A DNA stretch of 64,000 nt from an uncultured Chloroflexia bacterium. Its GTDB lineage: Bacteria > Chloroflexota > Limnocylindria > Limnocylindrales > CSP1-4. The notes below the pieces were generated by a model. The model worked only from the letters and a program-made list of their open reading frames with translations. It was not told the origin of the DNA and ran no database searches. A program made the translations under genes and the position numbers. The DNA lies in the NCBI GenBank assembly GCA_963778645.1, contig CAVZVH010000001.1, positions 67,697-131,696 of the forward strand, written 5' to 3'. This document shows, one piece after another, positions 10,437-59,858 of this stretch. Within the stretch, counting starts at the first letter, position 1. Each line of letters opens with the position of its first letter.

Positions 10437-10569
10437 GGCCGTTCGTGGGGAGACAGCCCGCCTGGCAGGGCGCCGCTCGAGAGCCATACGCTACACTCGC
10501 CGCCACCTCGGAGCCGGAGTCGCCGGCCCATGGCCACGACCCGCGCGAGAGAGGAGCCGATCCCGACTG

Positions 10570-11598
10570 ATGGGCCTGCAGCGTGCACGACCGTCGCACG
10601 AGATCCTCTCCGGTGACTCAGCCGACGTCTACTTCGCCCGCGCCGAAACCATCCTGGAACGCGAAGGCCTCGACCCGGTCGTGACCATGGAGGTGTTCGC
10701 CCGCCAGCATGCCGTGCTCTGCGGCATCGGCGAAGCCCGGAACCTCCTGGGCCACGTCCTCGCGGGGGCGGATGCGGAGCAGACGAGACTCGAAGCCCTC
10801 AAGGACGGCGACGTCATCGAGCCCAAGGAGGTCGTTCTCCGGATCCGAGCGCGCTATCGCACGTTCGGGCTCTACGAAACCGCGATGCTCGGGATGCTCG
10901 CGCAATCGACTGGCTGGGCGACCGCGTCGCGCGAGTGCGTCGACGCCGCGGCCCCGGACCCGGTCATCAGCTTCGGGGCACGGCACATCCACCCGGACAT
11001 CACCGACGTGCTGGACTACGCCGCGATCGTCGGCGGGTGCGTCGGCGCGTCCACGCCCGCCGGTGCTCGTCTGGCCGGCCTGGCGCCGACCGGCACCATG
11101 CCCCATTCGCTCGTCTTGATCTTCGGCGATACCGTCGAGGCGGCCCTCGCGTTCGACCGGCACATCGGACCGGACGTGCCGCGGATCGTGCTCGTTGACA
11201 CCTTCAAGGACGAGGCGGAGGAAGCGTTGCGCGTCGCCCACGCCCTGGGCGAGCGGCTGTACGGCGTCCGCCTGGACACCCCGTCCGAGCGCGGTCGGGT
11301 CACGGCCGAGCTGGTCCACGAGGTCCGCGCGCGTCTTGACCAGGCCGGCTTCGACCACGTGAAGATCGTCATCTCGGGCGGGCTCAACCCGGATCGGATC
11401 ACCTACTTCAAGGAAGCCGGCGCGCCGGTCGATTCGTATGCGGTGGGCTCGTACATCAGCGGCGCGACCCCGATCGATTTCACCGGCGACATCAAGGAGA
11501 TCGACGGCCGTCCGATCGCGAAGCGCGGACGGATCCCGGGCCCGACGAAATCCCCGCGACTGCAGCAGGTCGATCTCGCGGCCTGGCGCGAGGACTGA
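10570..11598 (+). CDS. pncB: Nicotinate phosphoribosyltransferase (short type)
   Basis: DVYF, SFGARH, GTMPHS, LVDTF, VRLDT, ISGGL and YAVGSYI motifs of the NAPRTase B type. Confidence 0.85.
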   Translation: MGLQRARPSHEILSGDSADVYFARAETILEREGLDPVVTMEVFARQHAVLCGIGEARNLLGHVLAGADAEQTRLEALKDGDVIEPKEVVLRIRARYRTFGLYETAMLGMLAQSTGWATASRECVDAAAPDPVISFGARHIHPDITDVLDYAAIVGGCVGASTPAGARLAGLAPTGTMPHSLVLIFGDTVEAALAFDRHIGPDVPRIVLVDTFKDEAEEALRVAHALGERLYGVRLDTPSERGRVTAELVHEVRARLDQAGFDHVKIVISGGLNPDRITYFKEAGAPVDSYAVGSYISGATPIDFTGDIKEIDGRPIAKRGRIPGPTKSPRLQQVDLAAWRED

Positions 11599-11640
11599 TC
11601 GCCCGACGACATCGGACGCGTTCCATGCCACCATCGCCGC

Positions 11641-12051
11641 GTGCACGAACGAGATCCACTCGAGCGAGATCCGAGCGAACCGGGCCCCGACGACGAGCAT
11701 GAGGGTGCGTACGCGCTGTTCCAGCGCGGCCATGAGCTGCTCGAGGGCCGACATCACGCCCAGGCCGCCATCGTCCTGGAGCGGGCGGCCCGCCTGGAAC
11801 CGGGCAAGGCATCGATCCTCGAGGCTCTCGGTCAGGCCTACTACAACTCGGGCCGCCACGAGCGGGCGAGGGCGACGTTCGAGGCGCTCCTGGAGATCGA
11901 CCCGTCGGCCCATTACGCGCATTTCGCACTCGGCCAGAGCCTGAAGCGGCTGGGCCGACGCAACGAGGCGGGCACGCATCTGCGACTCGCGGTCGCGCTG
12001 AGCCCGGAGACGACGCTGTACCGCGAGGCCCTGGCGCGACTCGGTCCGTAG
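11641..12051 (+). CDS. Tetratricopeptide repeat protein
   Basis: Repeated TPR-like helices (LEALGQAYYNSGR; AHFALGQSLKRLGR). Confidence 0.8.
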   Translation: MHERDPLERDPSEPGPDDEHEGAYALFQRGHELLEGRHHAQAAIVLERAARLEPGKASILEALGQAYYNSGRHERARATFEALLEIDPSAHYAHFALGQSLKRLGRRNEAGTHLRLAVALSPETTLYREALARLGP

Positions 12052-12069
12052 GCGCGGCCCGTCGCGACG

Positions 12070-12570
12070 TCACCGGGGCGCGCCGGCCGGAAGAAGTCCG
12101 CGACGCTCCAGTAGCCGGTAGAACGTCCCGCGTTGCGACGGTGTGAAGGCTCGGGTCGGCAGGATGTGGATGATGCCCTTGCCGGCATCGAGCACCAGGA
12201 ACGCCCCGACCTCATCCGCCCGCTGGATGCTCGACCAGGGCCGCCGGTCGTCCGAGATCGCGGAGTGGAACCGGATGCCTTCGTCGTCCGCGGTCATCGT
12301 CTCGTCGAGTCCCTCAGGCCCGATCCTCGTGCGGGCCATCCGCCAGACGAATGGCGCCATGATCCAGCCGGTGATGAGCCCGATCCCGAGCACGACGCCG
12401 ATGATCGAGATCAGGTCGCCGAGCAGGATGACAGCGGCACCACAGACCACGACGACCGCGATGCCGAGGACCTGTGTGAACCACGAGCGTCTGGCGGCCG
12501 CGGTGGACCCTCGGAGCATGTCCGACATCGTGACGTGATACGTCACCTCGACGACGTCGTCAGTGGTCAT
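12070..12570 (-). CDS. YcxB family membrane protein
   Basis: Two TM helices, then DDEGIRFH...PWSSI...FLVL...ILPTRAF, the YcxB-like C-terminal pattern. Start reassigned to ATG 12570 or GTG 12573. Confidence 0.7.
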   Translation of the reverse strand: MTTDDVVEVTYHVTMSDMLRGSTAAARRSWFTQVLGIAVVVVCGAAVILLGDLISIIGVVLGIGLITGWIMAPFVWRMARTRIGPEGLDETMTADDEGIRFHSAISDDRRPWSSIQRADEVGAFLVLDAGKGIIHILPTRAFTPSQRGTFYRLLERRGLLPAGAPR

Positions 12571-13180
12571 CACGCTCGCCTCGATCGCTCGACCCAGAAC
12601 AGGCCGACGATCGACTTCGCATCCACGATCTCGCCAAGCTCGACCGCCGCGAGCGCCGCCTCGAACGGGATCCGCTCGAGCAGCAGGCGCTCGTCTTCGT
12701 CGGGTCCGAGTCGGTCGCCGTGAGCCGGCGCCAGATCCGTCGCGAGGTACAAGTACATGACCTCGGAGGTGAACCCCGGCGTCGTGTAGAAGCGGGTCAG
12801 GAATTGCCATGACCCGGCCCGCATGCCGGTCTCCTCTTCCAGCTCGCGACGCGCCGCGATCGCCGGGTCCTCGGTCGTCCCGTCGTCGGCGACCTCGAGC
12901 GTTCCGGCGGGCAGCTCGAGGAGCGTCTCGCCGACCGCGACCCGGTACTGGCGCACGAGCAGGACGCGATCCTCCGAGTCGATGGCGACGACCGTCACCG
13001 CGCCCGGGTGGCCGGCGATCTCACGCGTTGCTCGCGATCCATCGGACCGCTCGATGGTGTCGACCCGGAACGTCAGGTAGCGGCCCTGGTGAAGGACCTG
13101 GGACTCGACGACGCGCTCGACGAGACCGGCCCCGGAGGGATCCTCCGGGGCCGGTCGGTCGCTGGTGGACGGATCGGTGC

Positions 13181-18194: not shown

Positions 18195-18224
18195 TTGACG
18201 GAGTCTTCGGGGCGTGCTTAGGAT
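18195..18224 (+). promoter_or_regulatory. Sigma70-type promoter for the SIS operon
   Basis: TTGACG (18195-18200), 18-nt spacer, TAGGAT (18219-18224); the operator lies at the predicted +1. Confidence 0.65.
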
Positions 18225-18290: not shown

Positions 18291-19088
18291 TTGCCCATCG
18301 CCGGCGCGTGGCTCTCCGAGGCCCGAGCAGTCCTCGATCGGATCGAAGCCACCCAGATGCCCGCCATCGCGGAGACCGTGAGCCTCTGCGCACGAGCCAT
18401 CGGCGACGGTGGCCTCGTCCACCTCTTCGGGACAGGCCACTCGCGGATCCCGCTCGAGGAGATGTTCCCGCGGTACGGGTCCTACCCCGGATTCCATCCG
18501 ATCGCCGAGCTCTCGATGACGTTCCACACCCAGGTCGTCGGTGCGAACGGCCAGCGTCAGGCGATGTTCATCGAGCGAACCGAGGGCCTCGCCGAAGTGA
18601 TCCTGGCCAACTTCCAGTTCGGGCCGAGCGACGTGATGATGGTCTTCTCGGCGTCCGGGCTGACCGCCGTCCCGATCGAGATGGCGATGGGCGCGCGAGC
18701 CCGCGGCCTGGTGGTCGTGGCCGTCACCTCGGTCGCCCAGTCGATGGCCGGTGTGCCGGAGCACCCGACCGGCAGCCGCCTGCTGGACCAAGCGGACATC
18801 GTCATCGACCTGTGCACGCCGGCCGGCGACGCGCTTGTGCGCCTGGACGGCCTGGACACGCCGATCGGCCCGGGCTCCACGGTCGCCAACGCCGCGATCG
18901 TCAACGAGATCAAGGTGGGGACCGCGGCGATCCTCCTGCAGCGGGGAGCGCTGCCGCCGGTCCTCACGAGCGCCGCCGTGGTCGGACCGGAGCGCTCGAT
19001 CGAACTGTTCGAGGCGGCGTACCGGGAACACGCTCGCCGGGTCGCTCTGGCGCTCGCCGGGGCCGTGGCGCCAGCTGACGAGGCCTAG
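18291..19088 (+). CDS. SIS domain sugar isomerase-like protein (UPF0309 type)
   Basis: HLFGTGHS, FSASG, VAVTS, IDLCTPAGDA and GPGSTV match the SIS fold; TTG start preceded by GGAGG. Confidence 0.8.
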   Translation: MPIAGAWLSEARAVLDRIEATQMPAIAETVSLCARAIGDGGLVHLFGTGHSRIPLEEMFPRYGSYPGFHPIAELSMTFHTQVVGANGQRQAMFIERTEGLAEVILANFQFGPSDVMMVFSASGLTAVPIEMAMGARARGLVVVAVTSVAQSMAGVPEHPTGSRLLDQADIVIDLCTPAGDALVRLDGLDTPIGPGSTVANAAIVNEIKVGTAAILLQRGALPPVLTSAAVVGPERSIELFEAAYREHARRVALALAGAVAPADEA

Positions 19089-19163: not shown

Positions 19164-20948
19164 GTGGCCGTGACAGAGGAGATCCTCGGCCAGTTCCTTG
19201 GAGACGACACGTTTCCGGTCGACTGGGACTCGGAGGTCGAGAAGGACTTCTTCTGGGTGTACGACGACCTGCACATCCCGCACCCGGTCAGCCCGATGTT
19301 CTTCGACATCGGTGGTTGGTGGCTCAGCTGCGACCACATGTTCCGCCGCTTCGGGACACCGTTCGCCGTCGACTGGCTGGCCAAGAACGTCAATGGCTAC
19401 GTGTACACGACCGCCATCCCGGCCGATCCGGACCTCCGGATCGAGGGAACCGAGTACAGCTCGCGCTACAGCGCGCGGGTGCCGCGCGACGCCACCTTCG
19501 CCGCCACGATGGGGGCGTATCTCGACGTGGTCCTGCCCGTCTACGGCCGGGACTTCGCCGACTGGTGGCGGGACCGCCTGCGGCCGGAGATGGAGCGCAA
19601 TTTCGCCTTCCTGGAGGCGCGCCTCGACGCCGCCGACGGCATGAGCCTGGCCGACGTGGCCTGCCTGCTCGAGGACGCTATCGACATCCACGATCGTCAC
19701 TGGAAGATCCACTGGATGCTGAACTTCGCCCAGCTGTCCGCGACGCTCCACCTGCGCGCCGTCATGGAGAAGATCCGCGGCACGGTCGACGAGGCGCTGC
19801 TGGGCCGCCTCCAGAACTCGGCATCGGACCGCAACTGGGACTCGATCGAGGCGCTGTGGCGGATGAAGAACGAGGTTCGCGATGATCACGAGCTGCGGGC
19901 GGCGTTCGCATCCGATGCCGCCGCCGAGATCGCCGCGTCGCTCCATGCGAGCGAGCGGGGCCGGCGGTTCATCGCCGAGGCGATCGGGCCGTATCAGCGC
20001 GAATTCGGATGGCATGCGGTCTGGAGCCACGAGTTCATCTTCCCGACGGTCCGCGAGCAGATGGAGCCGGTCCTCGAGCTCATCCGCGGGTACCTGGCCA
20101 GCGACTACGACTTTCCGAGCGCGATCGAGGCGATGCGGATCGACATCGCGGCCGCGTCCGAGGAGATCCTCGACGGGCTGACCGGCGATGCGCTCGAGGA
20201 GATGCGCGCGGCCAACGCCGTCAATCGCAGGATGGCGCCGCTGACGCCCGACCACCACTTCTACATCGACCAGGGCGCCAACGCCCACGTCCGCCTCGTC
20301 CTGCTCGAGGTCGGCCGCAAGCTCGTGGATGCCGGGCGCCTCGATGCGCCCGACGACGTGATGTTCCTTCGCTACAACGAGCTTCGGGGCCTGATCGGCA
20401 GCGCCGAATCGATCGACGCGCGGGCATTCGTCGCCAGCCGCCGCCTCGAGCGCCAGGCCGCCGCTCGCCGACATCCGCGCGACTGGGTCGGCACGGTCAC
20501 CCCATCGCAGCTCGCCTTCCCATACCTCGTCAATTGGGGGTACCCGGATCGCTTCCATCAGACGCAATCGGAGGATGTGCGCCTCATCACGGGGATCGGT
20601 GCGTCCCCGGGCATCGTCGAAGGCATCGCCCGGGTCGTGCGGACCGTCGACGAGTTCGACGAGGTCCGCGACGGCGACATCCTCGTGTGCCAGATGACCA
20701 ACCCGGCCTGGGTGGTCCTGTTCACCAAGATCGCCGGCCTGGTGACCGACACCGGGGGGACGACCTCGCATCCCGCCGTCCTCGCCCGTGAGTTCGGGAT
20801 CCCGGCGGTCATCGGCACATCCGTGGCGACCCAGCGGATCGCCACCGGCGACCGGTTGAGGATCGATGGCGCGGCAGGGCGGGTGGAGGTCATCGGCGAG
20901 GCGCCGGCCGGATCGACGGTCGTGTCGGCGACGGCGATCGGTCGCTGA
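19164..20948 (+). CDS. PEP-utilizing enzyme: substrate-binding domain plus phospho-His swivel, no ATP-grasp (phenylphosphate synthase alpha-like)
   Basis: C-terminal GIGASPGIVEGIARV...TDTGGTTSHPAVLAREFGIPAV phosphohistidine signature. N-terminal EKDFFWVYDDLHIPHP, VNGYVY and DHHFYID resemble PpsA-type proteins (recalled, not searched). Confidence 0.8.
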   Translation: MAVTEEILGQFLGDDTFPVDWDSEVEKDFFWVYDDLHIPHPVSPMFFDIGGWWLSCDHMFRRFGTPFAVDWLAKNVNGYVYTTAIPADPDLRIEGTEYSSRYSARVPRDATFAATMGAYLDVVLPVYGRDFADWWRDRLRPEMERNFAFLEARLDAADGMSLADVACLLEDAIDIHDRHWKIHWMLNFAQLSATLHLRAVMEKIRGTVDEALLGRLQNSASDRNWDSIEALWRMKNEVRDDHELRAAFASDAAAEIAASLHASERGRRFIAEAIGPYQREFGWHAVWSHEFIFPTVREQMEPVLELIRGYLASDYDFPSAIEAMRIDIAAASEEILDGLTGDALEEMRAANAVNRRMAPLTPDHHFYIDQGANAHVRLVLLEVGRKLVDAGRLDAPDDVMFLRYNELRGLIGSAESIDARAFVASRRLERQAAARRHPRDWVGTVTPSQLAFPYLVNWGYPDRFHQTQSEDVRLITGIGASPGIVEGIARVVRTVDEFDEVRDGDILVCQMTNPAWVVLFTKIAGLVTDTGGTTSHPAVLAREFGIPAVIGTSVATQRIATGDRLRIDGAAGRVEVIGEAPAGSTVVSATAIGR

Positions 20949-21006: not shown

Positions 21007-21879
21007 ATGCGAGCCTTCGCCTACGAGCGTCCGACCCGCCTTGAGGACGCGCTCGAACTGCTCGCCGAGCACGGCCCGGAGGCGAGCCTGCTTGCCGGTG
21101 GGACCGACCTGATCATCCGGCTTCGCGACGGGACGATCCGGCCGAGCGTGGTGGTCGATCTCAAGCGCGTCGCGGAGCTCGACGCGGAGATCGGCGACGC
21201 CGACGGCCATCTGCGGATCGGGGCTCGGACCGTGATGACCGACATCGCCGCGGACGAGCGCATCCGGCGGGACTACCCGGCCCTGGCCGAGGCGGCGTCG
21301 GTCGTGGGATCTGCCCAGATCCGGAACCGCGCGACGCTCGCCGGCAACATCTGCAATGCCTCCCCCGCGGCCGACACGGTTCCCGCGCTCCTGGTCTACG
21401 GCGCCCGGGTCGTCGCGACCGGCCCGGCGGGGACGCGGACGATCCCGATCGACGACGTCTTCGTCCGATCCGGTGTGACCACGCTCGGCCGCCGTGAGCT
21501 CCTTGTGGCCATCGAGCTGCCCGCCCCGACCGACCCACGGGGATCCGTCCATGTCCGACGTACCCGGCGTCGCGGTCACGACCTCGCCTCGGTCACGTTG
21601 ACCTGCGCCGTCCTGGCCGATGGGGTGACCACCTTGGCCTATGGCAGCCTCGGGCCCCGGCCGTTGCTGGTGGTCGACGAGACGGGTCTGCTCGCCGATC
21701 CAGCGGCTCCGGATCTCGCCAAGATGGCGCGGCTCGAAACGCTTTTCGTCGACGCCAGCCCGTCCGCGCGATCGATGCGGGCGAGCCCCGACTACCGCCT
21801 CGCGATGCTCCACGTCCTCGGGCTCCGGGCGGTCGGCATCGCCATCGAGCGACTCGCCCAGGCGACGGCCCCGCGATGA
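21007..21879 (+). CDS. Molybdenum hydroxylase FAD-binding subunit (CoxM/XdhB-like)
   Basis: LLAGGTDL, IRNRATLAGNICNASPAAD and RTRRRGHDLA. Confidence 0.92.
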   Translation: MRAFAYERPTRLEDALELLAEHGPEASLLAGGTDLIIRLRDGTIRPSVVVDLKRVAELDAEIGDADGHLRIGARTVMTDIAADERIRRDYPALAEAASVVGSAQIRNRATLAGNICNASPAADTVPALLVYGARVVATGPAGTRTIPIDDVFVRSGVTTLGRRELLVAIELPAPTDPRGSVHVRRTRRRGHDLASVTLTCAVLADGVTTLAYGSLGPRPLLVVDETGLLADPAAPDLAKMARLETLFVDASPSARSMRASPDYRLAMLHVLGLRAVGIAIERLAQATAPR

Positions 21880-22352
21880 CGACCACTCGCAGGATCGAAA
21901 CGACCGTGAACGGACAACGTCGCGCGATCGACGTCATCGCGCATCACACGCTTCTCGAGGTCCTCCGTGACGACCTCGGCCTGACCGGGACGAAGGAGTG
22001 CTGCCTGGTCGGCGAGTGCGGCGCCTGTACCGTGCTCGTCGATGGGGTCAGCGTGGACTCGTGCCTCATGCTCGCGGTCGAGGCCGACGGCGCGTCGGTC
22101 ACCACGGTCGAGGGTCTCGCCGGCGAGGACGGCCTGCACCCGCTTCAGCAGGCATTCCTCCGGACGGGTGCCGTCCAGTGCGGATTCTGCATCCCCGGTC
22201 AGCTCGTCTCGGCCCACGCCATGCTCGCGCTGATCCCACACCCGACCCGATCCGAGGTCGAGGAGGGCCTCGCCGGCAACCTGTGCCGATGCGCCGGGTA
22301 CGAGCAGATCATCGAAGCCGTCATGTCGGCGGCGGGAGACGAGGAGTCGTGA
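21876..22352 (+). CDS. Molybdenum hydroxylase 2Fe-2S subunit (CoxS-like)
   Basis: GTKECCLVGECGACTV, QCGFCIPG and GNLCRCAGY. Confidence 0.95.
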   Translation: MTTTRRIETTVNGQRRAIDVIAHHTLLEVLRDDLGLTGTKECCLVGECGACTVLVDGVSVDSCLMLAVEADGASVTTVEGLAGEDGLHPLQQAFLRTGAVQCGFCIPGQLVSAHAMLALIPHPTRSEVEEGLAGNLCRCAGYEQIIEAVMSAAGDEES

Positions 22353-24604
22353 GCGACCGAGTGGTCGGCTCGTCCCCGGCTCGCGTGGGCGGGCTCGATC
22401 GGGTCACGGGCCGGCAGGCGTATGTCGCCGATCTGCGACTCGAGGGGGCGCTCCAGGCCAAGCTGGTGAGCCTCGATGTCGCGCGGGCCACGGTCACGCG
22501 GATCGACACGCGTGCCGCGCTCGAGGTCCCGGGCGTCCGCCTGATCCTCACGGCGGCCGACCTGCCCCAGCCGGTCCCGCGCTTCGGTCCGCAGTGGCAG
22601 GACCGGCCGGTCCTCGCGGCCGGCGAGACCCACTACCACGGTGAGCCGATCGCGGCGATCGCAGCGGACACGGTCGACGCGGCGGAGGAGGCGGCTCGTC
22701 GGGTCCGGATCGAGTACGAGGAACTACCGGCGGTCGTCACGATCGCGGCGGCCCTCGCCCCGGACGCGCCGCTCGTCCAGGACCCCGCACTGCGACCGGG
22801 CGATCCGCTGGCGACCACGAACGTCCTTCGCGAGCACCACTACGGCTGGGGCGATGTGGAGGCCGCATCGGCCGACGTCGTGGTCGAGGGGACCTACCGA
22901 TTCCCGATGGTGACCCAGTTCGCGATCGAGCCACACGCCTTCATGGCCGCTCCCGACGGCGACGGGATCGCCATCTGGAGCTCGATCCAGCACCCCAACT
23001 GGCTGCAGCGGGTCATCGCCGGCGTGCTCCATCTGCCCCTCGCCAAGGTCCGGGTCTTCGCACCCGACCCGGGTGGCGGGTTCGGCGGCAAGCAGCACGC
23101 CAAGTACGAGCCGCTCGTCGCGTTCCTGGCCCTGCGGACGGGACGCCCGGTCCGCCTTGTCCTGACGCTCGAGGAGACCTTCCAGGCCGTCCGCCGGGGC
23201 GCATCGGAGATCCGCGTTCGCTCCGGTTTCCGGACGGACGGCAGCCTCGCGTTCCGCGACGTCGTCGCCGACTACCTCATCGGCGCGTACGCCGACATCG
23301 CCGACCGCACCGTCGGCAAGGGCAGCTATACCTCGAATGGGCCGTATCGCACGCCCGCCGTGCGGATCGTGGCGCGCAGCGTCCTCTCCCACACGACGCC
23401 TTCCACCGCCTTCCGTGGCTTCGGGAATCCCCAACAGATCTGGGCGGTCGAATTGAACATGGACGAGGCGGCGCTGGCGCTCGGCATCGATCCGCTCGAT
23501 CTGCGCCTGCGCAACCTGGCCCGCCGCGGGGAAGACTTCATCCCCGGCGATACCCCGGTGGACGGCGATTGGGCGGCGACCGTCGTTCGGGCGGCCGAGC
23601 TGATCGGGTGGGGGAGCCCGTCGGCTCCTGGTCGCGGTCGTGGCCTGGCGGTCGGCCTGAAGTCCGGGCCGACGACGGGGCTGTCGTATTCGACCGTCCG
23701 CCTGCTCGCGGACGGAAGCGTGATCGTGCACGCTGGCACGTCGGACATGGGCCAGGGCGCGCGGACGATCTTCGCCCAGATCGCCGCCGACGAGCTCGGT
23801 GCCCCGATCGACTGGGTGACGATCGTGATGGGCGACACGGCCGTGGTCCCGTATGACCAGCAGACGTCGGCGAGTCGGTCGTCCGTCCTCATGGGCAATT
23901 CGGTCCTTGATGCCTGCCGCCAGGTCCAGGGGAAGATCCAGGCGATGGCCGCCCGGCTGGAGTCGGTCGATGCGTCCGAGATCGTCGTGGATCGCGGCGA
24001 GGTCCGGATCGGGGAGCGGGTGATGCCGATCCGGGACGTCCTGATCCGCGGCCTCGGTCGGCTGGGCGGGGAGGTCATCGGGATCGGGGAGATGCGCAAG
24101 GAGGCCGACCCGGACCATCCGCTCGGCGGGACCGCCGCCTTCTTCGAGTTCAATTGCACCGCCGTCGAGGTGGAGGTCGATCGGGCGACGGGCGACATCG
24201 TCATCGTCCGGCACGTCACCGTCTCGGACGTCGGCAAGGCCCTCAACCCGACCCAGGTCCGCGGCCAGGACGAGGGCGCCGCCGTCATGGGGCTCGGGCA
24301 CACGCTGATGGAGCACTACATCTACGACGACGACGGCCGGATCCGCAACCTCGGCGCGATCGACTACCGGATCCCGACGAGCATGGACCTGCCGTTGCGC
24401 ATGGAGAGCGACATCATCGAGAACGAGGACGGCCCCGGCCCGTACGGCTCGAAAGGGATGAGCGAGGGCGCGCTCCTGTGCGTCGCTCCGGCCGTGGCCG
24501 CGGCCGTCCGCGATGCCACGGGGGTGACGATCCGCGAGTTGCCCCTGACCCCCGAGCGCGTCTGGCGAGCGCTCCGCGAGTCGGGCGCGGGTGACGACGC
24601 ATGA
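22349..24604 (+). CDS. Molybdenum hydroxylase molybdopterin-binding large subunit (xanthine dehydrogenase family)
   Basis: DRVTG...Y, GGGFGGK, AFRGFGNPQ, DMGQG, SASRS and YGSKGMSEG. Start GTG 22349. Confidence 0.92.
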   Translation: MSDRVVGSSPARVGGLDRVTGRQAYVADLRLEGALQAKLVSLDVARATVTRIDTRAALEVPGVRLILTAADLPQPVPRFGPQWQDRPVLAAGETHYHGEPIAAIAADTVDAAEEAARRVRIEYEELPAVVTIAAALAPDAPLVQDPALRPGDPLATTNVLREHHYGWGDVEAASADVVVEGTYRFPMVTQFAIEPHAFMAAPDGDGIAIWSSIQHPNWLQRVIAGVLHLPLAKVRVFAPDPGGGFGGKQHAKYEPLVAFLALRTGRPVRLVLTLEETFQAVRRGASEIRVRSGFRTDGSLAFRDVVADYLIGAYADIADRTVGKGSYTSNGPYRTPAVRIVARSVLSHTTPSTAFRGFGNPQQIWAVELNMDEAALALGIDPLDLRLRNLARRGEDFIPGDTPVDGDWAATVVRAAELIGWGSPSAPGRGRGLAVGLKSGPTTGLSYSTVRLLADGSVIVHAGTSDMGQGARTIFAQIAADELGAPIDWVTIVMGDTAVVPYDQQTSASRSSVLMGNSVLDACRQVQGKIQAMAARLESVDASEIVVDRGEVRIGERVMPIRDVLIRGLGRLGGEVIGIGEMRKEADPDHPLGGTAAFFEFNCTAVEVEVDRATGDIVIVRHVTVSDVGKALNPTQVRGQDEGAAVMGLGHTLMEHYIYDDDGRIRNLGAIDYRIPTSMDLPLRMESDIIENEDGPGPYGSKGMSEGALLCVAPAVAAAVRDATGVTIRELPLTPERVWRALRESGAGDDA

Positions 24605-26731
24605 CGCTGACCCTCGCGCTCGGCGCGCCCTGGTCCGGCACGCTCGACGAGGCCAGGGCGTTGGTCGGCGGCAAGGCGGCGAATCTCGGGGTCATGGCGC
24701 GCGACCTCGGCCTGCCGGTTCCGCCCGGGTTCGTCATCACGACCGACGCCTGCCGGGCTGTGCTGGCCGGCGGCTGGCCGGCCCACCTCGACGAAGAGAT
24801 CCGGGACCGGATGGCCGGCCTCGAGGCGGCCGTCGGTCGCCGGTTCGGGGATGCGCGGGATCCGTTGCTGGTCAGCGTCCGATCCGGAGCCCCAGTGTCG
24901 ATGCCCGGGATGATGGACACGATCCTCGACCTGGGCCTCAACGACGCGACGACCCGTGGCCTCGCGCAGGCCTCCGGCAGCGAGGTCTTCGCTCGCAGCT
25001 GTCGCCAGCGATTCGAGGCGAGTTTCCGTTCGATCGTCGGGGTGGCCGAGGTGCCGGCCGATCCCTGGGCTCAGCTCCGCCTGGCGATCGAGGCGGTCTT
25101 CCGGTCCTGGAACAGCGATCGCGCCCGAGCGTACCGCCGAGGAGGAGGGCATCCCGGACGACCTAGGGACGGCGGTCACGGTCCAGGCGATGGTCTTCGG
25201 CAACCGTGGCCGGAGGTCGGGCACCGGCGTCGTCTTCACGAGGAATCCCGCGACCGGTGAGCCGACCCTCTACGGCGACGTCATGTTCGACGCCCAGGGC
25301 GAGGACGTGGTCGCCGGGACGCATCCGACCGATCCGATCACGGTCCTCGACGAGCGGCTGCCGGAGGTCGCCGCCGACCTGCGGCGATACGCGGACCAGC
25401 TCGAGCGCCACTTCACCGATCTCTGCGACATCGAGTTCACGATCGAACAGGGCCGACTGTGGCTGCTCCAGGTCCGGGTCGGCAAACGGAGCCCGCAGGC
25501 GGCCCTGCGGATCGCGGTCGACATGGCCAGCGACGACACGTTCCCGCTGACCCGGGCGCACGCGGTCGAGCGTGTGGCGTCGCTGCTCGCCGATCCGCCG
25601 TCGGTCGCGACGACCCGCGCCAGCTCCGTCCTGCCGCTCACGACCGGATTGCCGGCCTCGCCCGGGACCGCGAGCGGGCCGATCGTCACGAGCCCCGAGG
25701 CGGCGCAGGAAGCGGCCGAGGGTGGACAGGCGGCGATCCTCGTGCGAGCCGAGACCTCGCCCGACGACGTTCACGGGATGGCTCGCGCGGCTGGGATCCT
25801 GACCTCGCGGGGCGGCCTCGCCAGCCACGCGGCGGTCGTCGCCCGCGGGTGGGGGATCCCGGCCGTCGTCGGGGCGGCCGCGATGACCGTGGGTGACGGC
25901 CGGGTCGTCTTTGGCGGACGGAGCCTCGAGGCCGGAACGGTCATCACGATCGACGGGAGCTCCGGCGAGGTCTTCGAGGGCACGATCCCCGGCACGACCG
26001 AGGTCGTGCCCGAGGCGCGGACGCTGCTCGGCTGGGCGCACGAGCTCGGGATCCTCGTCGCCGACGAAGGGAGCGTCGCCGACCCGTCGAGCCTGTCCGG
26101 TCCGGTGAGCAAGATCACGCCCGATGGCTGCCTCCAGGCCCTGGACATCAAGGGCTTGGCGCCGATCGAGGGCGTCGCGGATGCGGTGCGTTCGACCCCG
26201 GAAACCGTTGGCCCGATCCTCGACCAGCTGGTCGTCGACGGCCTGGTGGAGACCGTCACGGGCGCCTATCGACTCACCGAGCTCGGCACGGACCGGGCGA
26301 GGGGCCTGCGCCGCACCGAACAGGACGCGTGGGGGATCGCCGAGGCCATCGTGGCACTCGACGCGTTCCTGGGGCTCGACCATGCGATGAAGGAGATCGT
26401 GACCGCCTGGCAGCTCCGTGACGATGCGGACGGCCAAGTCATCAACGATCACTCGGACTCGGTCTATGACCAGAGGGTGCTGGACCACCTCGCCGCGATG
26501 CACGCCGATGCGGCGGCCTGGTTCACACGACCGGAGCAGGGCTGTCCGCGACTGGCGGCCTATCGGATCCGCCTCGGCCGGGCGCTCGAGATGGCCCGCG
26601 CCGGCGACCAGCGGTTCGTGGCTTCACCGCGCGTCGACAGCTACCACGGGATCTGGTTCGAGCTCCACGAGGACCTGATCCGTCTCGCCGGGCGGAGCCG
26701 AGAGGAAGAGGTGGCCGCCGGCCGGGCATAG
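24601..26731 (+). CDS. Truncated pyruvate phosphate dikinase-like protein (ATP-grasp plus His swivel) fused to a wHTH/helical C-terminal domain; apparent frameshift near 25140
   Basis: GGKAANL, VSVRSGAPVSMPGMMDTIL, QAMVFGN, QGEDVVAG, DIEFTIE and GGLASHAAVVARGWG. The pyruvate-binding barrel is absent, replaced by about 200 aa ending DSYHGIWFELHEDL. Confidence 0.85.
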
Positions 26732-26776: not shown

Positions 26777-27236
26777 TCAGCTCACCGCTTTCTTCACGAG
26801 CGTCACGATCCTTGCCTCGTCGGCGGCGGTCAACTTCGTGAGAGCGAAGGACGTCGGCCACATGGTGCCTTCGTCGAGGTTTGCGTCGTCGTTGAAGCCG
26901 AACGTCGCATACCGCGACTTGAACTTGTCCGCGCTTGTGAAGAAGCAGACGATCTTGCCGTCCTTGGCATATCCGGGCATCCCGTACCAGGTCTTCGGCG
27001 AGAGGGCTGGCGCGTTGGCTTTGATGAGGGCATGGAGCCGCTCGGCCATGACCCGATCCGATTCTCGGCATCTCGGCGATCTTCTCGAGCACGTCGCGTT
27101 CTCCGTCCGCCGCGCCCGCCCGCGGGCCCCGGCGCGCGGCCGCCTTCTGCTCCTTGGCGCGCTCCTTGATCGCGGCTCGTTCCTCGTCGGTGAAGATCGC
27201 GGTGGTGGTCTTGGCGGACTTCTTCGTGTCGTTCAT
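26777..27236 (-). CDS. DUF1801/YdhG-like protein (apparent frameshift near 27060)
   Basis: [16 protein letters not shown]-terminus joins MAERLHALI...[20 protein letters not shown]...YATFGF in the next frame. Confidence 0.8.
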
Positions 27237-27421
27237 TGGAGGTTTCCTCCTCGGCGAGTCTTGATCTGTCGCTCCTGATGGTAGGGAGCCGCCGCCGCGG
27301 CGGCTTCTTCAAAACTGCTCGATCGTGACCGGCGCGAGATGCCCGGATGCTCGGGGTCGAAGGCATACCGACGATCTACGATCGACGCACCACCGGATCT
27401 CGACGAGGAGGTGCACGCGCG

Positions 27422-28669
27422 ATGTTCACGGCCACCAAGGACCTGATGCTCCCGGCGACCGTTACTGGTTCGTGGCCGCGGCCACGCTGGTACGACGGCG
27501 GCCTCTGGGGCCGCCCGCTCGACACGGCGCTGCTCGACGTCCGCTTCCGTGAGCAGTTCCTCGACGCGCACGCCACCGTGATCGCCGAGCAGGAGCGCGC
27601 GGGGCTCGACATCCTCACGAATGGCGACTACCACCTCGACGAGGACTTCGCCGGCCGCTCGTGGCACCACTATCCGTTGCAGCGCTGGAAGGGGTTCGAG
27701 CACGAGGAACTCCAGTACGAAGGCTCGCGCGACCGCCTGCTCGAGTTCCCGCCAGGCACCCTGATGAACGAGATCGAGACGACGTGGCGGTGGCCGCGCG
27801 TCGTCGGCAAGGTCGAACACGACCCTCGCAATCCGCTCGAGTACGCCAAGCTCTGGCGGATCGCCCAGGCACGCGCGGGCTCGGGCAAGCCGGTCAAGTT
27901 CGGAACCTGCTCGTCGCAAGTGCTGTCGATCTTCCTCGATAGCCATACGGCCGAATACGACCTGGAGGACAAGAAGCAGCTGATCTGGGACATGGCCGGC
28001 GCGATGAACATCGAGCTTCGTCAGCTCGCGGCCGCCGGGGCCAAGGTCATCCAGATCGAGGAGCCGACGATCCATTTCGTGGCGTGCTTCTATCCCGACC
28101 AGACGGAGTTGCTCGACTTCCTCGTCGACGCGTTCAACCACGAGGTGGACGGCCTCGACGATGTCGAGCTGTGGATCCACACCTGCTGGGGCAACCCGAA
28201 CATGCAGAAGGTCTACACCGGCGAGTCGTACGAGAAGTCGATCGACATCTACCTGGAGCGCCTCAAGGGCGACGTCTGGACCATCGAGGCGACCGAGAAC
28301 GAGCTGGCCGAGATCGACCTGTTCAAACCGTATGCCGGCCGGCTGCAGAAGAAGGTCGCCGTCGGCGTTGTCAACCACCGCACGCTTCAGGCCGACATGG
28401 CGCCGGTCGTCGCCGGGCGGGTGCGGCGCGCATTGGAGGTGATCCCGGCGGACAAGCTGATCCTCTCCACCGATTGCGGGTTCGGCCGGCAGGGGTTCAA
28501 CCGGACGGTCGCGTTCTACAAGACGACGGCGATCGCGCAGGCGCGAAATATCGTCCTGAAGGAGCTCGGGCTGGAGGAGCGCTACGTGCCGGCGGCCGAC
28601 CCGTCCCTGCAGACCGACGTGCTCCCGGACCGCGAGCCTCTGACGCACCTGCCGTCACCCTGGAAGTAG
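27422..28669 (+). CDS. Cobalamin-independent methionine synthase II family (MetE C-terminal-like) Zn enzyme
   Basis: TVTGSWPRP, LDILTNGD, IQIEEP, HTCWGN (His/Cys Zn ligands) and STDCGFG; GAGGAGG RBS before ATG 27422. Confidence 0.85.
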   Translation: MFTATKDLMLPATVTGSWPRPRWYDGGLWGRPLDTALLDVRFREQFLDAHATVIAEQERAGLDILTNGDYHLDEDFAGRSWHHYPLQRWKGFEHEELQYEGSRDRLLEFPPGTLMNEIETTWRWPRVVGKVEHDPRNPLEYAKLWRIAQARAGSGKPVKFGTCSSQVLSIFLDSHTAEYDLEDKKQLIWDMAGAMNIELRQLAAAGAKVIQIEEPTIHFVACFYPDQTELLDFLVDAFNHEVDGLDDVELWIHTCWGNPNMQKVYTGESYEKSIDIYLERLKGDVWTIEATENELAEIDLFKPYAGRLQKKVAVGVVNHRTLQADMAPVVAGRVRRALEVIPADKLILSTDCGFGRQGFNRTVAFYKTTAIAQARNIVLKELGLEERYVPAADPSLQTDVLPDREPLTHLPSPWK

Positions 28670-29668: not shown

Positions 29669-30562
29669 TTAGCGGCCCTTCGCGTACCCCGTCGCGGTCA
29701 GCTTGTCCCAGAGGGTCCCGGCATTGTTGTTCTGGATGTGATCCATCATGTAGCCCTGCCCGACGTCGACCGGCCCGAAGGCGTCGTCGAACCGGACGCG
29801 CGCGATCGTCTCCTCGCGCGTCCAGCCCTTCGCGACCGCGTCTGCGACGGCGGCCTTCCACTGATGCAGGACGGACCGCTGCGTATCGACGTAGGCGATC
29901 GTCTGGACGGGACCGTGGCCCGGGATCAGGTGGTCGACGTCGAGCTGGCGGATCCGCTCGAGCGCATCCAGCCATTGGTCGACGTTCGAGGTCATCAGCC
30001 ACGTCTGGCACTCGGCGAAGATCGTGTCGCCGGTAAAGACGGCCCGCTCCTCGGGCACGTGCACCGCGAGCTGGCCGGGTGTGTGCCCCGGCGTGTGGAG
30101 CAGGTGAAAGGTGTGATCGCCGACGCGCAGCGTCAGGTCGCCCGTGAAGACCACCGTCCCCTTGTTCGGGTCCTGGTAGTAGACCTCGCGATCGGGAATC
30201 AGCGGCGCCGCCTCGGGGTCGTCGGTCGGGATCGCCTCGAGGGCATACGCGAACGGATCGAGGGCCGCATTCGGGTCCATGAAGTTGTCGTACAGCCCCT
30301 GGTGATTGACGACCGGCACGCCCTTGTACCAGTAGTTCCCGAAGATGTGATCGACGTGGTGCTCGGTGTTGATGAGGTAGCGGATCGGGCCGTGCGACTC
30401 CGCCTCCGCCCGCATCGCGACCGCCCGTGTCGGCAGCTGGGGCGTGTCGATGGCCACGACCCCATCGGCGGTCACGACGAAGCTCGGGTTGCACCCGCGG
30501 AGCTTGGTCGTCGTGTAGATGTTCGGCGTGACGCGTTCGAGGTCCAGGGTGGCAACCGCCAT
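29669..30562 (-). CDS. Metallo-beta-lactamase fold hydrolase (cyclase-like)
   Basis: IDTP, TEHHVDHIFGN, TPGHT, FTGDT and IPGHG. Confidence 0.88.
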   Translation of the reverse strand: MAVATLDLERVTPNIYTTTKLRGCNPSFVVTADGVVAIDTPQLPTRAVAMRAEAESHGPIRYLINTEHHVDHIFGNYWYKGVPVVNHQGLYDNFMDPNAALDPFAYALEAIPTDDPEAAPLIPDREVYYQDPNKGTVVFTGDLTLRVGDHTFHLLHTPGHTPGQLAVHVPEERAVFTGDTIFAECQTWLMTSNVDQWLDALERIRQLDVDHLIPGHGPVQTIAYVDTQRSVLHQWKAAVADAVAKGWTREETIARVRFDDAFGPVDVGQGYMMDHIQNNNAGTLWDKLTATGYAKGR

Positions 30563-30580
30563 GCGACGAGACTCCTCGGG

Positions 30581-31366
30581 CTACTGGGTCGCGGTGAGAC
30601 CGCCGTCGATCCCGAGGACCTGGCCGGTCACGAATGAGGCGGCGTCCGAGCACAGGAAGATGGCCGGTCCGACGAGGTCGCTGGTCTCGCCGACGCGGCC
30701 GAGCGGGATGCGGTTCACGATGCCGGCCTTGAAGGCCGGGTCCTCGAGCAGCATCGCGACCTGCGGCGTGTCGACGAACGTCGGCATGATGGCGTTGACC
30801 CGGATCCCATGCTTCGCCCATTCGGTCGCCCATTGCCGGGTGAGCGAACTGATCGCTCCCTTCGCGGCCACATACGCGGAATAGCCGGCGTTGATCCCCA
30901 GGTTCGCGCGCACCGACGAGATGTTGAGGATCCGCCCGCCGTGACCCTGCGCGATGAGCTGACGGACGACGGCCTGGGTCGGCACGACCGTGCTTCGTAC
31001 GTTGAGCTCCATGATCCAGTCCCAGTCGGATCGGGGGTAGCCCTCGGCGGGATGGAGCGCCTTGCCGGCACCGCCGCCGACCGCATTGACGAGGATGTCG
31101 ATGCGACCGAACCGATCCACGGTCTCCCGGACCATCCGATCGCCGTCGGGCTCGCTGGTCACGTCCGCGACCACCGTGACGCCCTCGGATCCGGTCGCCT
31201 CCACGCGCTGGGTCGTCGCATCCAGGGTGTCGCGGGTCCGCCCGGCCACCGCGACGCGAGCACCCGCGCCAGCGAGGGCCACGGCCATGTCGGACCCGAT
31301 GCCCCCGCCGCCACCGGCGACGATGGCGACCAGCCCGTCGAGGCTGAAGATGTCGAGTTGGCCCAA
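30581..31366 (-). CDS. SDR oxidoreductase (gluconate 5-dehydrogenase/KduD-like)
   Basis: VAGGGGGIG, YVAAKG, VNAIMPT and GQVLGIDGG; TTG start at 31366 with AGAGGAG RBS. Confidence 0.88.
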   Translation of the reverse strand: MGQLDIFSLDGLVAIVAGGGGGIGSDMAVALAGAGARVAVAGRTRDTLDATTQRVEATGSEGVTVVADVTSEPDGDRMVRETVDRFGRIDILVNAVGGGAGKALHPAEGYPRSDWDWIMELNVRSTVVPTQAVVRQLIAQGHGGRILNISSVRANLGINAGYSAYVAAKGAISSLTRQWATEWAKHGIRVNAIMPTFVDTPQVAMLLEDPAFKAGIVNRIPLGRVGETSDLVGPAIFLCSDAASFVTGQVLGIDGGLTATQ

Positions 31367-31451
31367 TCCGTGCTCCTCTGCGCCTTCATCGATTATCGAA
31401 CGTTGGGCTGGCCGATGCACGAGCACGCGGCAGGATCGGCCCGTTCGGTCG

Positions 31452-31470
31452 TACCATAGAAAACGGTTGC
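31452..31470 (+). promoter_or_regulatory. -10 box (TACCAT) followed by a LacI-type operator GAAAACGGTTGC
   Basis: TACCAT 31452-31457; 31459-31470 fits the LacI consensus GnAAnCGnTTnC. A LacI gene lies in the downstream operon. Confidence 0.6.
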
Positions 31471-31505
31471 TGTCGCGACGAACACACGAGTCCGGAGTGA
31501 GTGAG

Positions 31506-32453
31506 ATGGCGCTGAACCTGGACGGTCTGATCCCGGCCACCGTGCTCCCGATGGCGGCCGACGGCAGCATCGACGAACCGGCCCTGCGCTCGTACATCGC
31601 GTGGATCGTCGAGCAGGGGCCGGTGGCGCTGGCGATCAATGTCGACACCGGCGAAGGGCCTCATCTCACCCACGACGAGAGGGTCCGGATCCTGCAGATC
31701 GTCGACGACGTCACTGACGTTCCGATCGTCGCCGGGCTCGCCGGACCGTCGACCGATGCGGCAGTCCGCCAGGCCGCGGAGTTCAAGGCAGCCGGCGCCG
31801 ACGCGCTCCTCGTCTTCCCGATCCCGGCGTACCTGAGCGAGCCGCTCGACGTGCGGGTCCCGGTGCGCTACCACGAGGCCATCGCCGAGGTTGGCCTGCC
31901 GCTCATCCTGTTCCAACTGCAACCCGCACTCGCCGGTCTGAACTTCGAGCCCGAGACGTTGCGGGCGATGGCCGAGGTCGACGGCGTCATCGCCATCAAG
32001 GAAGCGTCGTTCGATGCTCGGCGGTTCGTCGATACCGCGAACCTCCTCGCCGAGCTGCCCCGGCCGATCACGCTGCTGACCGGCAACGACAACTTCATCC
32101 TCGAGTCGTTCATGCTCGGGGCGACCGGCGCGCTCATCGGTTTCGGCGCGGTGATGACCCGCGAGCAGGTCCAGATGATCGAAGCGTGGCAGGCCGGCCG
32201 GATCGACGAGGCCCGGGCGCTCGGCAAGCGGGTCCAGCGGCTCGCCGACGTCGTGTTCGCGAAGCCCGTCGGCGACTACCGCGTGCGCCTCAAGGAGTGC
32301 CTGCGACTGCTGGGCGTCCTCGACGCGGCCCATGTCCGGCGCCCGTTGATGCCGATCAGCGAAGACGAGCGGGCGTACCTCGTCTGGGTCCTCTCGGAAG
32401 TCGGGCTGCTGTCCGGTGCGCCCGCCGCATCCCCCGCGTTCGCGCGACCCTAA
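31506..32453 (+). CDS. DapA/NanA-like class I aldolase family protein (non-canonical active site)
   Basis: GLIPATVLP, NVDTGEG, GADALLVFP, IAIKEAS (Schiff-base Lys) and LLTGND. Confidence 0.85.
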   Translation: MALNLDGLIPATVLPMAADGSIDEPALRSYIAWIVEQGPVALAINVDTGEGPHLTHDERVRILQIVDDVTDVPIVAGLAGPSTDAAVRQAAEFKAAGADALLVFPIPAYLSEPLDVRVPVRYHEAIAEVGLPLILFQLQPALAGLNFEPETLRAMAEVDGVIAIKEASFDARRFVDTANLLAELPRPITLLTGNDNFILESFMLGATGALIGFGAVMTREQVQMIEAWQAGRIDEARALGKRVQRLADVVFAKPVGDYRVRLKECLRLLGVLDAAHVRRPLMPISEDERAYLVWVLSEVGLLSGAPAASPAFARP

Positions 32454-52246: not shown

Positions 52247-52289
52247 ACCCGGTCCACCACCTTGTCAGCGGCCTCCGCGTGCGATCGAG

Positions 52290-58326: not shown

Positions 58327-58429
58327 ATGCACAGGAGGACACGCGACGCGGGCCACGGCCGAGGCCGACGGGTCCGCCAGGAGGAGATCGCTGACCGAAC
58401 CGCGCCGCAGCGTGCGGGAGGAGTGACGT

Positions 58430-59788: not shown

Positions 59789-59810
59789 GCGGACCCCTCG
59801 GCACAGGTTT

Positions 59811-59841
59811 CGAATGGGCCGGCATCACGCCGGCCCATTCG
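59811..59841. terminator. Perfect 13-bp hairpin between the SBP and permease genes
   Basis: cgaatgggccggc - atcac - gccggcccattcg. Confidence 0.7.
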
Positions 59842-59858
59842 CCATCCTTGCCCCACCG

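Follow-up and report, generated by a model that had tools for sequence, protein, structure and literature searches.

A putative split-dikinase component encoded beside a molybdenum hydroxylase, with alternative candidate ATP-grasp partners in related gene clusters

Results

Genes at the P0001 locus

The window analysed here is a stretch of 64,000 nucleotides (G+C about 70%) of contig CAVZVH010000001.1, from an uncultured Chloroflexia bacterium whose genome assembly comprises 4.0 Mb on 42 contigs and is 82% complete. Our subject is the open reading frame (ORF) at 19164-20948 and its product, P0001, which a note made from the letters of the sequence (hereafter the original prediction) had likened to PpsA, the alpha subunit of phenylphosphate synthase. 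The ORF is intact and starts with GTG, with GGAGGA 8 nt 5' of the start codon. Right 3' of it, at 21007-24604, lie the genes for a xanthine dehydrogenase (XDH)-family molybdenum (Mo) hydroxylase, which the original prediction had overlooked, followed by a translationally coupled gene of the truncated pyruvate, phosphate dikinase (PPDK) type that resembles VadK of Mycobacterium tuberculosis (Table 1). The P0001 gene and the three hydroxylase genes are all intact, and their G+C content at third codon positions (GC3), 0.84-0.90, is of coding type.

Table 1. Features at the P0001 locus, with positions counted from the first letter of the window.
Feature	Position	Strand	Remarks
P0001 ORF, putative A component of a split dikinase	19164..20948	+	594 aa; helical acceptor-binding domain (Rph_4th) and C-terminal phosphohistidine swivel domain
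Swivel (PEP-utilizers mobile) domain of P0001	20667..20879	+	aa 502-572; His536 codon 20769-20771, within T528-D-T-G-G-T-T-S-H536
FAD-binding medium subunit, XDH-family Mo hydroxylase	21007..21879	+	290 aa; 2 Cys only, no 4Fe-4S insert
[2Fe-2S] small subunit	21876..22352	+	start overlaps preceding stop codon
Molybdopterin-binding large subunit	22349..24604	+	751 aa; GGGFGGK motif, catalytic-Glu motif SKGMSEG
Truncated PPDK (VadK/Rv1127c type) with C-terminal winged-helix-containing domain	24601..26731	+	ATP-grasp (PPDK_N), own swivel His; start overlaps stop of Mo subunit gene
MBL-fold hydrolase	29669..30580	-	frequent companion of the module; 67-71% identical to MBL proteins of the Amycolatopsis sp. 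Hca4 and Georgenia soli clusters
SDR oxidoreductase	30581..31660	-	stop-to-stop ORF limits; SDR domain from aa 111; pairs with MBL gene in many related loci
SIS_2 sugar-isomerase-domain protein	18291..19088	+	76 nt 5' of P0001 gene; NF002805 269 bits
Sigma-70-like promoter match TTGACG-18-TAGGAT	18195..18224	+	between divergent GntR/UTRA and SIS genes; consensus match only, 1 found vs 0.4 expected

Domain layout and fold of P0001

The motifs quoted in the original prediction are all found in P0001, namely EKDFFWVYDDLHIPHPVSP at aa 26-44, KNVNGYVY at aa 74-81, DHHFYID at aa 363-369 and GGTTSHPAVLARE at aa 531-543, the last of which includes His536. The statement that P0001 is without an ATP-grasp domain was likewise borne out, the sole Pfam-A match being the PEP-utilizers mobile domain (aa 502-572, E 3e-25), with no PPDK_N; in precomputed Pfam annotation, identical or near-identical database proteins also carry PF27448 (Rph_4th). 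P0001 contains the phosphohistidine signature T/S-x-x-G-G-x-x-x-H (T528...G531-G532...H536), and Gly531, His536, Ala538 and Arg542 are invariant in both of our alignments (A1 and A2). An AlphaFold2 model with 25 homologues in the input (pLDDT 85.8, pTM 0.86) was compared with the PDB using Foldseek, and rifampin phosphotransferase (RPH; 5fbu, 5fbt, 5hv1) was its sole full-length match, with E-values of 4e-18 to 2e-17 (3.7e-18 for 5fbu), TMq 0.62-0.63, about 600 aligned columns and 19-20% identity, while the remaining matches covered the swivel domain only. Because RPH alone matches the fold over its full length and the phosphohistidine signature is present, the layout of P0001 is that of PpsA, CreH and HpeH, which is to say the substrate-binding and swivel domains of RPH minus the ATP-grasp. 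HpeH, the A component of hydroxyphenylethanone dikinase, likewise matches RPH structurally (Dexter et al., PMC12167813).

RPH (PDB 5fbt, 5hv1) shares with P0001 the arrangement of substrate-binding domain and swivel His, and presumably His-mediated phosphotransfer, but has its ATP-grasp fused N-terminally within one chain and belongs to an antibiotic-resistance context. That P0001 is itself an antibiotic-modifying enzyme, a split rifamycin-type phosphotransferase conferring resistance, would agree with RPH being the best structural match and with NCBIfam RPH matches over the C-terminal third of the protein; it is nevertheless very improbable in view of the low identity just given, the scores of the RPH models (83-114 bits against cut-offs of 999-1700) and a conserved operon context of catabolic type with no resistance or biosynthetic genes.

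The database proteins closest to P0001 are named Chloroflexi bacterium CSP1-4 and Candidatus Limnocylindrales, which makes the host a Chloroflexota bacterium of Limnocylindria type; many relatives are 86-90% identical to it, and the genome holds no paralogue. The annotation names 'pyruvate, water dikinase' and 'phenylphosphate synthase' are unsuitable for proteins of this type.

Relation to PpsA and the phenol pathway

PpsA-type proteins were sought in a sample of 401 Actinomycetota genomes, and the PpsA/CreH/HpeH-type clade was recognised by traits reported for the characterised enzymes, by NCBIfam scores and by a stand-alone PPDK_N gene close by, not by way of named reference sequences. Its members (loci L123-L128, L130 and L132) have about 600-650 aa and carry Met at -2 and Ser or Cys at -1 from the His (GGMMSHAAIV), and in L124 and L125 a stand-alone 365-aa PPDK_N gene lies directly 3'. 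The PpsA motifs given in the original prediction have counterparts in this group (FWFFDGMHNPEP, VNGYLY and ENHNFYVEHW). P0001 and a PpsA-type protein align pairwise from end to end with 26% identity (E 1e-39) and with the motifs in register: FWVYDDLHIPHP with FWFFDGMHNPEP, VNGYVY with VNGYLY, and DHHFYID with ENHNFYVE. Common to the two types are thus FW.(F/Y)D..H.P.P, NGY.Y and (D/E)(H/N)H.FY(I/V)(D/E).

The two types differ in the models that they match and in their place in the tree. Against the NCBIfam models PRK08296.1-2 to -5 (NF006150-NF006153), P0001 scores 172 bits versus a cut-off of 578 (NF006153), 156 versus 693 (NF006151), 121 versus 650 (NF006150) and 113 versus 723 (NF006152), whereas the PpsA-type proteins of L124, L126 and L132 reach 617-1068 bits over the four models, passing 2-4 cut-offs each, with 825-1068 bits on NF006153. 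The NF006153 cut-off was exceeded in 1 of 14 control genomes, a set that includes C. glutamicum, the search not reporting which genome it was. The phylogeny proposed as a check in the original prediction, a maximum-likelihood tree of 52 family members computed with IQ-TREE, places P0001 outside the PpsA-type clade: that clade and the P0001 superclade are separate, each with 100% SH-aLRT support, with long branches between them, and fused RPH-like proteins and other two-component forms sit in between. HpeH, CreH, PpsA and RPH carry Met two residues before the catalytic His (PMC12167813). In P0001 the residues before the catalytic His are T534-S535, giving Thr-Ser-His where the PpsA/CreH/HpeH type has Met-(Ser/Cys)-His, and the N-terminal GWEE(M/L)YP segment of that type is lacking. 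The identity of 26% to the PpsA type compares with about 45% among the characterised PpsA/CreH/HpeH/AcvA-type members themselves.

Because of this identity, the score of 172 versus 578 bits and the separate, fully supported clade, P0001 is not assigned to the PpsA/CreH/HpeH family proper; judged by these alignments, its resemblance to PpsA is genuine homology within the wider RPH/PpsA dikinase superfamily. The earlier designation as a PpsA-family member therefore stands as to full-length homology and domain layout, and falls as to clade, by scores and by tree. In sum, what that note observed was largely right and how it read the observation was partly right.

UbiD (PF01977), whose absence from the window had been noted, has 0 matches even across the 4.0-Mb, 82% complete genome, in a search that was positive in 9 of the 14 control genomes. 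The genome-wide search for ppsB and ppc genes that had been proposed as a further check accordingly returned no UbiD and no stand-alone PpsB-type PPDK_N gene; the only PPDK_N domains in the genome belong to a full-length housekeeping PPDK on contig C20 and to the VadK-like gene of the operon. The view that P0001 does not act in anaerobic phenol carboxylation is supported by the lack of UbiD, the position outside the PpsA clade and the different operon context, and an acceptor other than phenol is judged most probable.

The closest solved structure to the Mo large subunit is 4-hydroxybenzoyl-CoA reductase alpha (1rm6, E 4e-90), an enzyme of the anaerobic phenol route. A reductive role of this kind is unlikely because the FAD subunit has two Cys and no Cys-rich 4Fe-4S insertion; the catalytic-Glu motif of the large subunit is intact. 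This structural match, the shared domain layout, the three aligned motifs and the incompleteness of the genome are what could be adduced for P0001 as a true phenylphosphate synthase alpha subunit whose ppsB and ppc genes lie in another part of the genome. We consider that reading scarcely credible, given the absence of any UbiD match or stand-alone PPDK_N gene in the genome, scores far under the family cut-offs, the different clade, Thr instead of Met at -2 from the His, and an FAD subunit without the 4Fe-4S insertion expected of 4-hydroxybenzoyl-CoA reductase.

A VadK-like ATP-grasp protein in the same gene string

The original prediction had also stated that no PpsB-type gene lies in the window, and this needs correction: a PPDK_N gene is present in the same gene string, although it is of truncated-PPDK (VadK) type, not a stand-alone PpsB, and is frameshifted. 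The gene is split in two frames near 25135-25150, with one extra base relative to the related locus L001 in a GAGGAGGAGGG stretch. An intact orthologue of 715 aa (P0126) scores 482 bits with NF004531 (truncated mycobacterial-type PPDK; cut-off 456), and the winged-helix-like domain of the VadK-like protein gives a weak match to HVO_A0261_N. VadK of M. tuberculosis autophosphorylates on a His and is described as a regulatory kinase that binds metabolic enzymes, proposed to regulate methylcitrate-cycle enzymes and required for virulence (PMC13400623). Like the intact partner orthologue, which passes NF004531, M. tuberculosis VadK (Rv1127c) is a truncated PPDK with a swivel His; unlike it, the protein described here is fused to a winged-helix domain and encoded inside a dikinase and Mo-hydroxylase operon. 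From its domains and position, the VadK-like protein is the obvious candidate for the ATP-binding partner of P0001.

The frame break may be an assembly indel or the mark of a true pseudogene. Other pairs of high-GC3 ORFs overlap in different frames in the window (50133-52264, 58427-61671 and 30581-32453), the full-length PPDK on C20 (68187-69651) is also matched in two frames, and proteins of related long-read 'MFD' metagenome-assembled genomes (MAGs; P0141, P0164) are frameshifted too. Taken together, these sites suggest frequent indel errors in the assembly, the break in the VadK-like gene perhaps being one of them.

Homologues of the VadK-like protein and of its parts occur elsewhere. A partial second copy of its C-terminal half, 54-64% identical and in two frames, lies at the start of another contig of the genome (C3:2-798). 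Free-standing homologues of the C-terminal winged-helix-containing domain, of about 200 aa, are encoded beside A-type genes on an archaeal-type contig (L138:7228-7851), an anaerobe contig (L004:296-904 and 1966-2556) and a Diaphorobacter plasmid (L140:10899-11519), and share the motif INDH.D.AYD...SYH.(I/V)W(F/Y)..HED. The plasmid pROB02 of Rhodococcus opacus B4 (L163) carries a cre-like cluster with cytochrome P450, ferredoxin, ferredoxin reductase, aldehyde dehydrogenase (ALDH), alcohol dehydrogenase and an FCD regulator, together with a PEP-utilizing enzyme of 794 aa and a truncated-type 'pyruvate, phosphate dikinase' of 570 aa; the use of truncated PPDKs may therefore extend to further dikinase systems for aromatic compounds.

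Related loci keep the pterin enzyme and exchange the putative ATP-grasp partner

The scan of genome contigs gave relatives at least 67% identical to P0001, and the context of more distant homologues was taken from encoding contigs, a plasmid collection and sampled genomes. About 100 related loci were long enough to show neighbours, and nearly all have the P0001 homologue beside a Mo enzyme. In 81 loci, with orthologues 67-88% identical, genes for the FAD, FeS and Mo subunits and the VadK-like protein are present wherever the contig is long enough, in an arrangement that is colinear, divergent or has the VadK-like gene inverted; these loci are mostly from Limnocylindria, some being labelled Actinomycetota. 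In 60 of the 81, genes for a GntR-FCD regulator and a 300-aa protein separate the A gene from the FAD gene.

Among more distant homologues, one that is 44% identical to P0001 is followed by an XDH-family large subunit, and one that is 48% identical stands in a full cluster of a cultured organism, on the Thermomicrobium roseum megaplasmid NC_011961 (L139, 47285-72952). This cluster encodes an ABC transporter, a Tm-1-like/UPF0261 and PEP-hydrolase-like pair, GntR, a cyclase, a PpsB-type ATP-grasp protein, an HD-like protein, the FAD subunit, FAH, ABM, the A homologue, and the Mo and FeS subunits, and would be a good experimental system. The clusters of Amycolatopsis sp. Hca4 and Georgenia soli comprise A, GntR-FCD, a stand-alone PPDK_N protein (273-274 aa), XDH subunits, FAH, ABM, a His_Phos_1 phosphatase, ALDH and MBL, with COXG alongside the XDH subunits in Amycolatopsis sp. 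Hca4; the Mo subunit and MBL protein of Georgenia soli are 64% and 71% identical to their counterparts in the window.

We compared the ATP-grasp partner in 24 loci examined in detail. A PpsB-type protein without a VadK-like one is encoded in 16 of them and the VadK-like fusion without PpsB in 7, the window included; none has both, and the single locus with neither is a truncated contig. PpsB-type and VadK-type partners thus replace each other in otherwise homologous clusters.

The linked oxidoreductase changes as well at greater distance: homologues 37-39% identical to P0001, on contigs of anaerobes and of archaeal type, are encoded beside AOR-family tungsten or molybdenum (W/Mo) oxidoreductases, not XDH-family enzymes. 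The contigs with AOR-type genes are of low GC (L138:5373-7217 and 10201-12579; L137:2512-3462) and also carry ferredoxin, cupin, cyclase (PF04199) and DUF1097 genes.

The distribution of the gene is patchy. Of the genomes sampled, 22 of 301 from Chloroflexota and 13 of 401 from Actinomycetota hold an orthologue with a score of more than 739 bits, the scores in the latter sample falling sharply from more than 739 to at most 315 bits, and two genomes of the same genus as the host have no P0001 gene. In soil metagenomes, P0001-type proteins are abundant.

Discussion

A proposed phosphohistidine carrier in a molybdenum-hydroxylase pathway

We favour, with somewhat better than even confidence, the reading that P0001 carries the phosphohistidine and binds the acceptor, as the A component of a split dikinase of the RPH/PpsA superfamily that uses ATP to phosphorylate small molecules, acting in a Mo-hydroxylase pathway on a hydroxy-(hetero)aromatic substrate. 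Its ATP-grasp partner, which here would be the VadK-like protein and in the Actinomycetota and Thermomicrobium clusters a stand-alone PpsB-type protein, would present ATP, from which His536 of the swivel domain would become phosphorylated. The swivel domain would then bring the phosphoryl group to the helical Rph_4th domain and onto the hydroxyl of a small, probably hydroxy-(hetero)aromatic substrate. The co-encoded XDH-family Mo hydroxylase would work on the resulting phospho-ester. Hydrolysis of the ester would come later and might fall to the linked MBL hydrolase, a candidate (aryl-)phosphate ester hydrolase; related clusters encode a His_Phos_1 or HD phosphatase that is a candidate for this last step. 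What we infer in this scheme is the role of the VadK-like protein as phosphoryl donor, the identity of the acceptor with the substrate of the hydroxylase, the sequence of steps and the kind of substrate.

The rationale, modelled on the way in which the Cre pathway works ('phosphorylate, oxidise, dephosphorylate'), is chemically sensible, and we offer it as a proposal. Phosphorylation of a ring hydroxyl would remove electron donation or protect the hydroxyl, the Mo-OH nucleophile could then hydroxylate the ring or oxidise a side chain, and the phosphatase or MBL protein would free the product.

Two-component phenolic dikinases are known, namely PpsAB of Thauera aromatica (phenol), CreHI of Corynebacterium glutamicum (4-cresol), HpeHI of Rhodococcus rhodochrous (hydroxyphenylethanones) and AcvAB of Sphingobium SYK-6. 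They are split enzymes whose A protein, like P0001, joins an RPH-like acceptor-binding domain to a swivel His at the C-terminal end and is itself devoid of an ATP-grasp. Since CreHI, HpeHI and AcvAB are established aerobic members that do not act on phenol, and a similar pair is known from the 3-hydroxypyridine cluster discussed below, a PpsA-like protein without ppc genes, which is indeed what we see here, is less novel than the original prediction implied. The Cre and Acv/Hpe pathways have a parallel in the P0001 orthologues of 48-60% identity, which are accompanied by a stand-alone PpsB-type ATP-grasp protein and a phosphatase. P0001 itself differs from these systems in that its putative partner in the window belongs to the VadK type of truncated PPDK and brings a swivel His along, and its companion enzyme is an XDH-family Mo hydroxylase where phenolic dikinase systems have a UbiD carboxylase, a P450 or a biotin carboxylase.

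The nearest described parallel to the operon is the 3hpd cluster of Ensifer adhaerens HP1, in which the XDH-family 3-hydroxypyridine dehydrogenase HpdA1-4 converts its substrate only if two neighbouring genes are present as well, orf9 ('pyruvate-phosphate dikinase') and orf10 ('PEP-utilizing protein mobile subunit'); knock-out of either abolishes growth on 3-hydroxypyridine, which the authors left unexplained (bioRxiv 10.1101/2020.01.08.898148). Like the P0001 operon, this cluster places an XDH-family Mo hydroxylase beside a PEP-utilizer/PPDK-like pair, and it includes a GntR regulator. Clusters of the 3hpd kind were reported in Blastococcus, Amycolatopsis, Pseudonocardia, Gaiella and others (bioRxiv 10.1101/2020.01.08.898148), and close relatives of P0001 occur in these same four lineages. 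HpdA differs in having a separate SRPBCC subunit and maleamate-pathway neighbours, neither of which was found at the P0001 locus. No Ensifer record was among the best 60 of 248 plasmid matches. The Diaphorobacter plasmid cluster, considered as a 3hpd homologue, was rejected: it has a VadK-like gene, a separate winged-helix homologue and a distant A-type protein, but its oxygenases are of the Rieske type and it encodes no Mo enzyme.

A broader generalisation is possible, if doubtful. VadK-type truncated PPDKs, with a winged-helix partner or domain, might be interchangeable with PpsB as the ATP-binding phosphoryl donor of RPH-like dikinases, and the clusters might carry out a 'phosphorylation-assisted molybdenum hydroxylation', in which the hydroxyl of a hydroxy-N-heteroaromatic or phenolic compound would be transiently phosphorylated, the product attacked at its ring or side chain by a pterin enzyme (XDH-family Mo in aerobes, AOR-family W/Mo in anaerobes and archaea) and the phosphate finally removed.

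Evidence that weighs the other way

Several points tell against the dikinase reading of P0001. Its clade is a distinct, biochemically uncharacterised one encoded beside pterin-dependent oxidoreductases, and the PpsA-type clade with which it is compared was delimited by published traits and gene context. The VadK-like partner carries a swivel His of its own, which a simple PpsB role would not need, and its gene is frameshifted in this assembly. The 3hpd cluster is likened to the operon by description, not by sequence, and the 3hpd study detected no phosphorylated intermediate (bioRxiv 10.1101/2020.01.08.898148). A tblastn search at 1e-8 with COXG of Amycolatopsis as query found no SRPBCC/CoxG subunit in the genome, and no maleamate-pathway genes (hpdBCDE) were noticed among the annotated neighbours, no dedicated search having been made. 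The GntR-FCD and 300-aa genes of the module are absent from the window and from the genome, and the window also lacks counterparts of the FAH, ABM and phosphatase genes seen in PpsB-type clusters, so that the local pathway may be reduced or decaying.

Carried further, these absences, the frame break in the partner, the two same-genus genomes without the gene and its patchy distribution would make the operon a decaying remnant in which P0001 has no current role in its host. We regard this as quite improbable. P0001 and the three hydroxylase genes are intact, with GC3 values of coding genes, and many relatives share 86-90% identity with P0001; breaks of this kind recur in the window and among proteins of related long-read MAGs, which points to assembly indels; and five related loci (L001, L022, L023, L031, L035) are also without the GntR-FCD and 300-aa genes yet have an intact VadK-like partner.

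The main competing explanation is a regulatory or maturation phosphorelay, in which P0001 and the VadK-like::winged-helix protein would switch the Mo hydroxylase or the transcription of the operon instead of phosphorylating a substrate. It draws on the nature of VadK as an autophosphorylating regulatory kinase that binds metabolic enzymes (PMC13400623), on the winged-helix-like domain of the partner, whose free-standing homologues lie beside A-type genes (L138, L004 and the Diaphorobacter plasmid), on the presence of two swivel histidines in the module and on the lack of a phosphorylated intermediate in the 3hpd work. We nonetheless hold it to be unlikely, as orthologous clusters use a plain PpsB-type ATP-grasp protein and a dedicated His_Phos_1 or HD phosphatase, in keeping with a metabolite that is phosphorylated, and as P0001 retains the large acceptor-binding domain that in RPH and HpeH binds a small-molecule substrate.

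Implications

It was recognised recently that the breakdown of aromatic compounds (cresol, acetovanillone, hydroxyacetophenone) can begin with a split His-swivel dikinase, and the P0001 clade, as we read it, would extend this enzyme type to a widespread module linked to Mo hydroxylases. The exchange of partners and the linkage to the hydroxylase are informative and had previously gone unremarked. The dikinase reading offers a testable explanation for the dependence of 3-hydroxypyridine dehydrogenase on a 'PEP-utilizing protein' and a 'PPDK'. The replacement of PpsB-type by VadK-type partners also hints at the biochemical role of VadK-like kinases, a matter of interest given that M. tuberculosis requires VadK for virulence, and interchangeability of VadK and PpsB, if true, would give the VadK family a concrete one.

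Other features of the locus and of related clusters

Upstream of P0001, the promoter match listed in Table 1 is a possible start of the plus-strand gene string, and no terminator-like sites were found between 17400 and 27400. The SIS, ROK kinase, GntR/UTRA and DeoC genes might suggest a sugar pathway, a reading that we rejected, as these are neighbours in only 3 of the 81 related loci; the SIS gene adjoins the P0001 homologue in L001, L015 and L063. These upstream genes lie outside the conserved module.

Downstream of the VadK-like gene, the 146-aa ORF at 26838-27278 has no Pfam match. Between the VadK-like gene and the MBL/SDR pair, a MetE-like protein with the Meth_synt_2 catalytic domain only is encoded at 27347-28669; this gene recurs beside the module at about 90% identity in several relatives (L013, L023, L030, L058).

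The 300-aa protein of related loci (L014:11488-12387, L138:3803-4702) has no Pfam or NCBIfam match and contains a P-loop-like GGESNHGKS or SGEANHGKT; a 37%-identical homologue adjoins the A homologue on an archaeal-type contig. A divergent ATP-grasp was rejected for it, there being no similarity to PPDK_N proteins, and it may serve the system as a kinase or regulator. The UPF0261 and PEP-hydrolase pair of the Thermomicrobium cluster is also present in the Blastococcus-labelled locus L074 and beside P0182.

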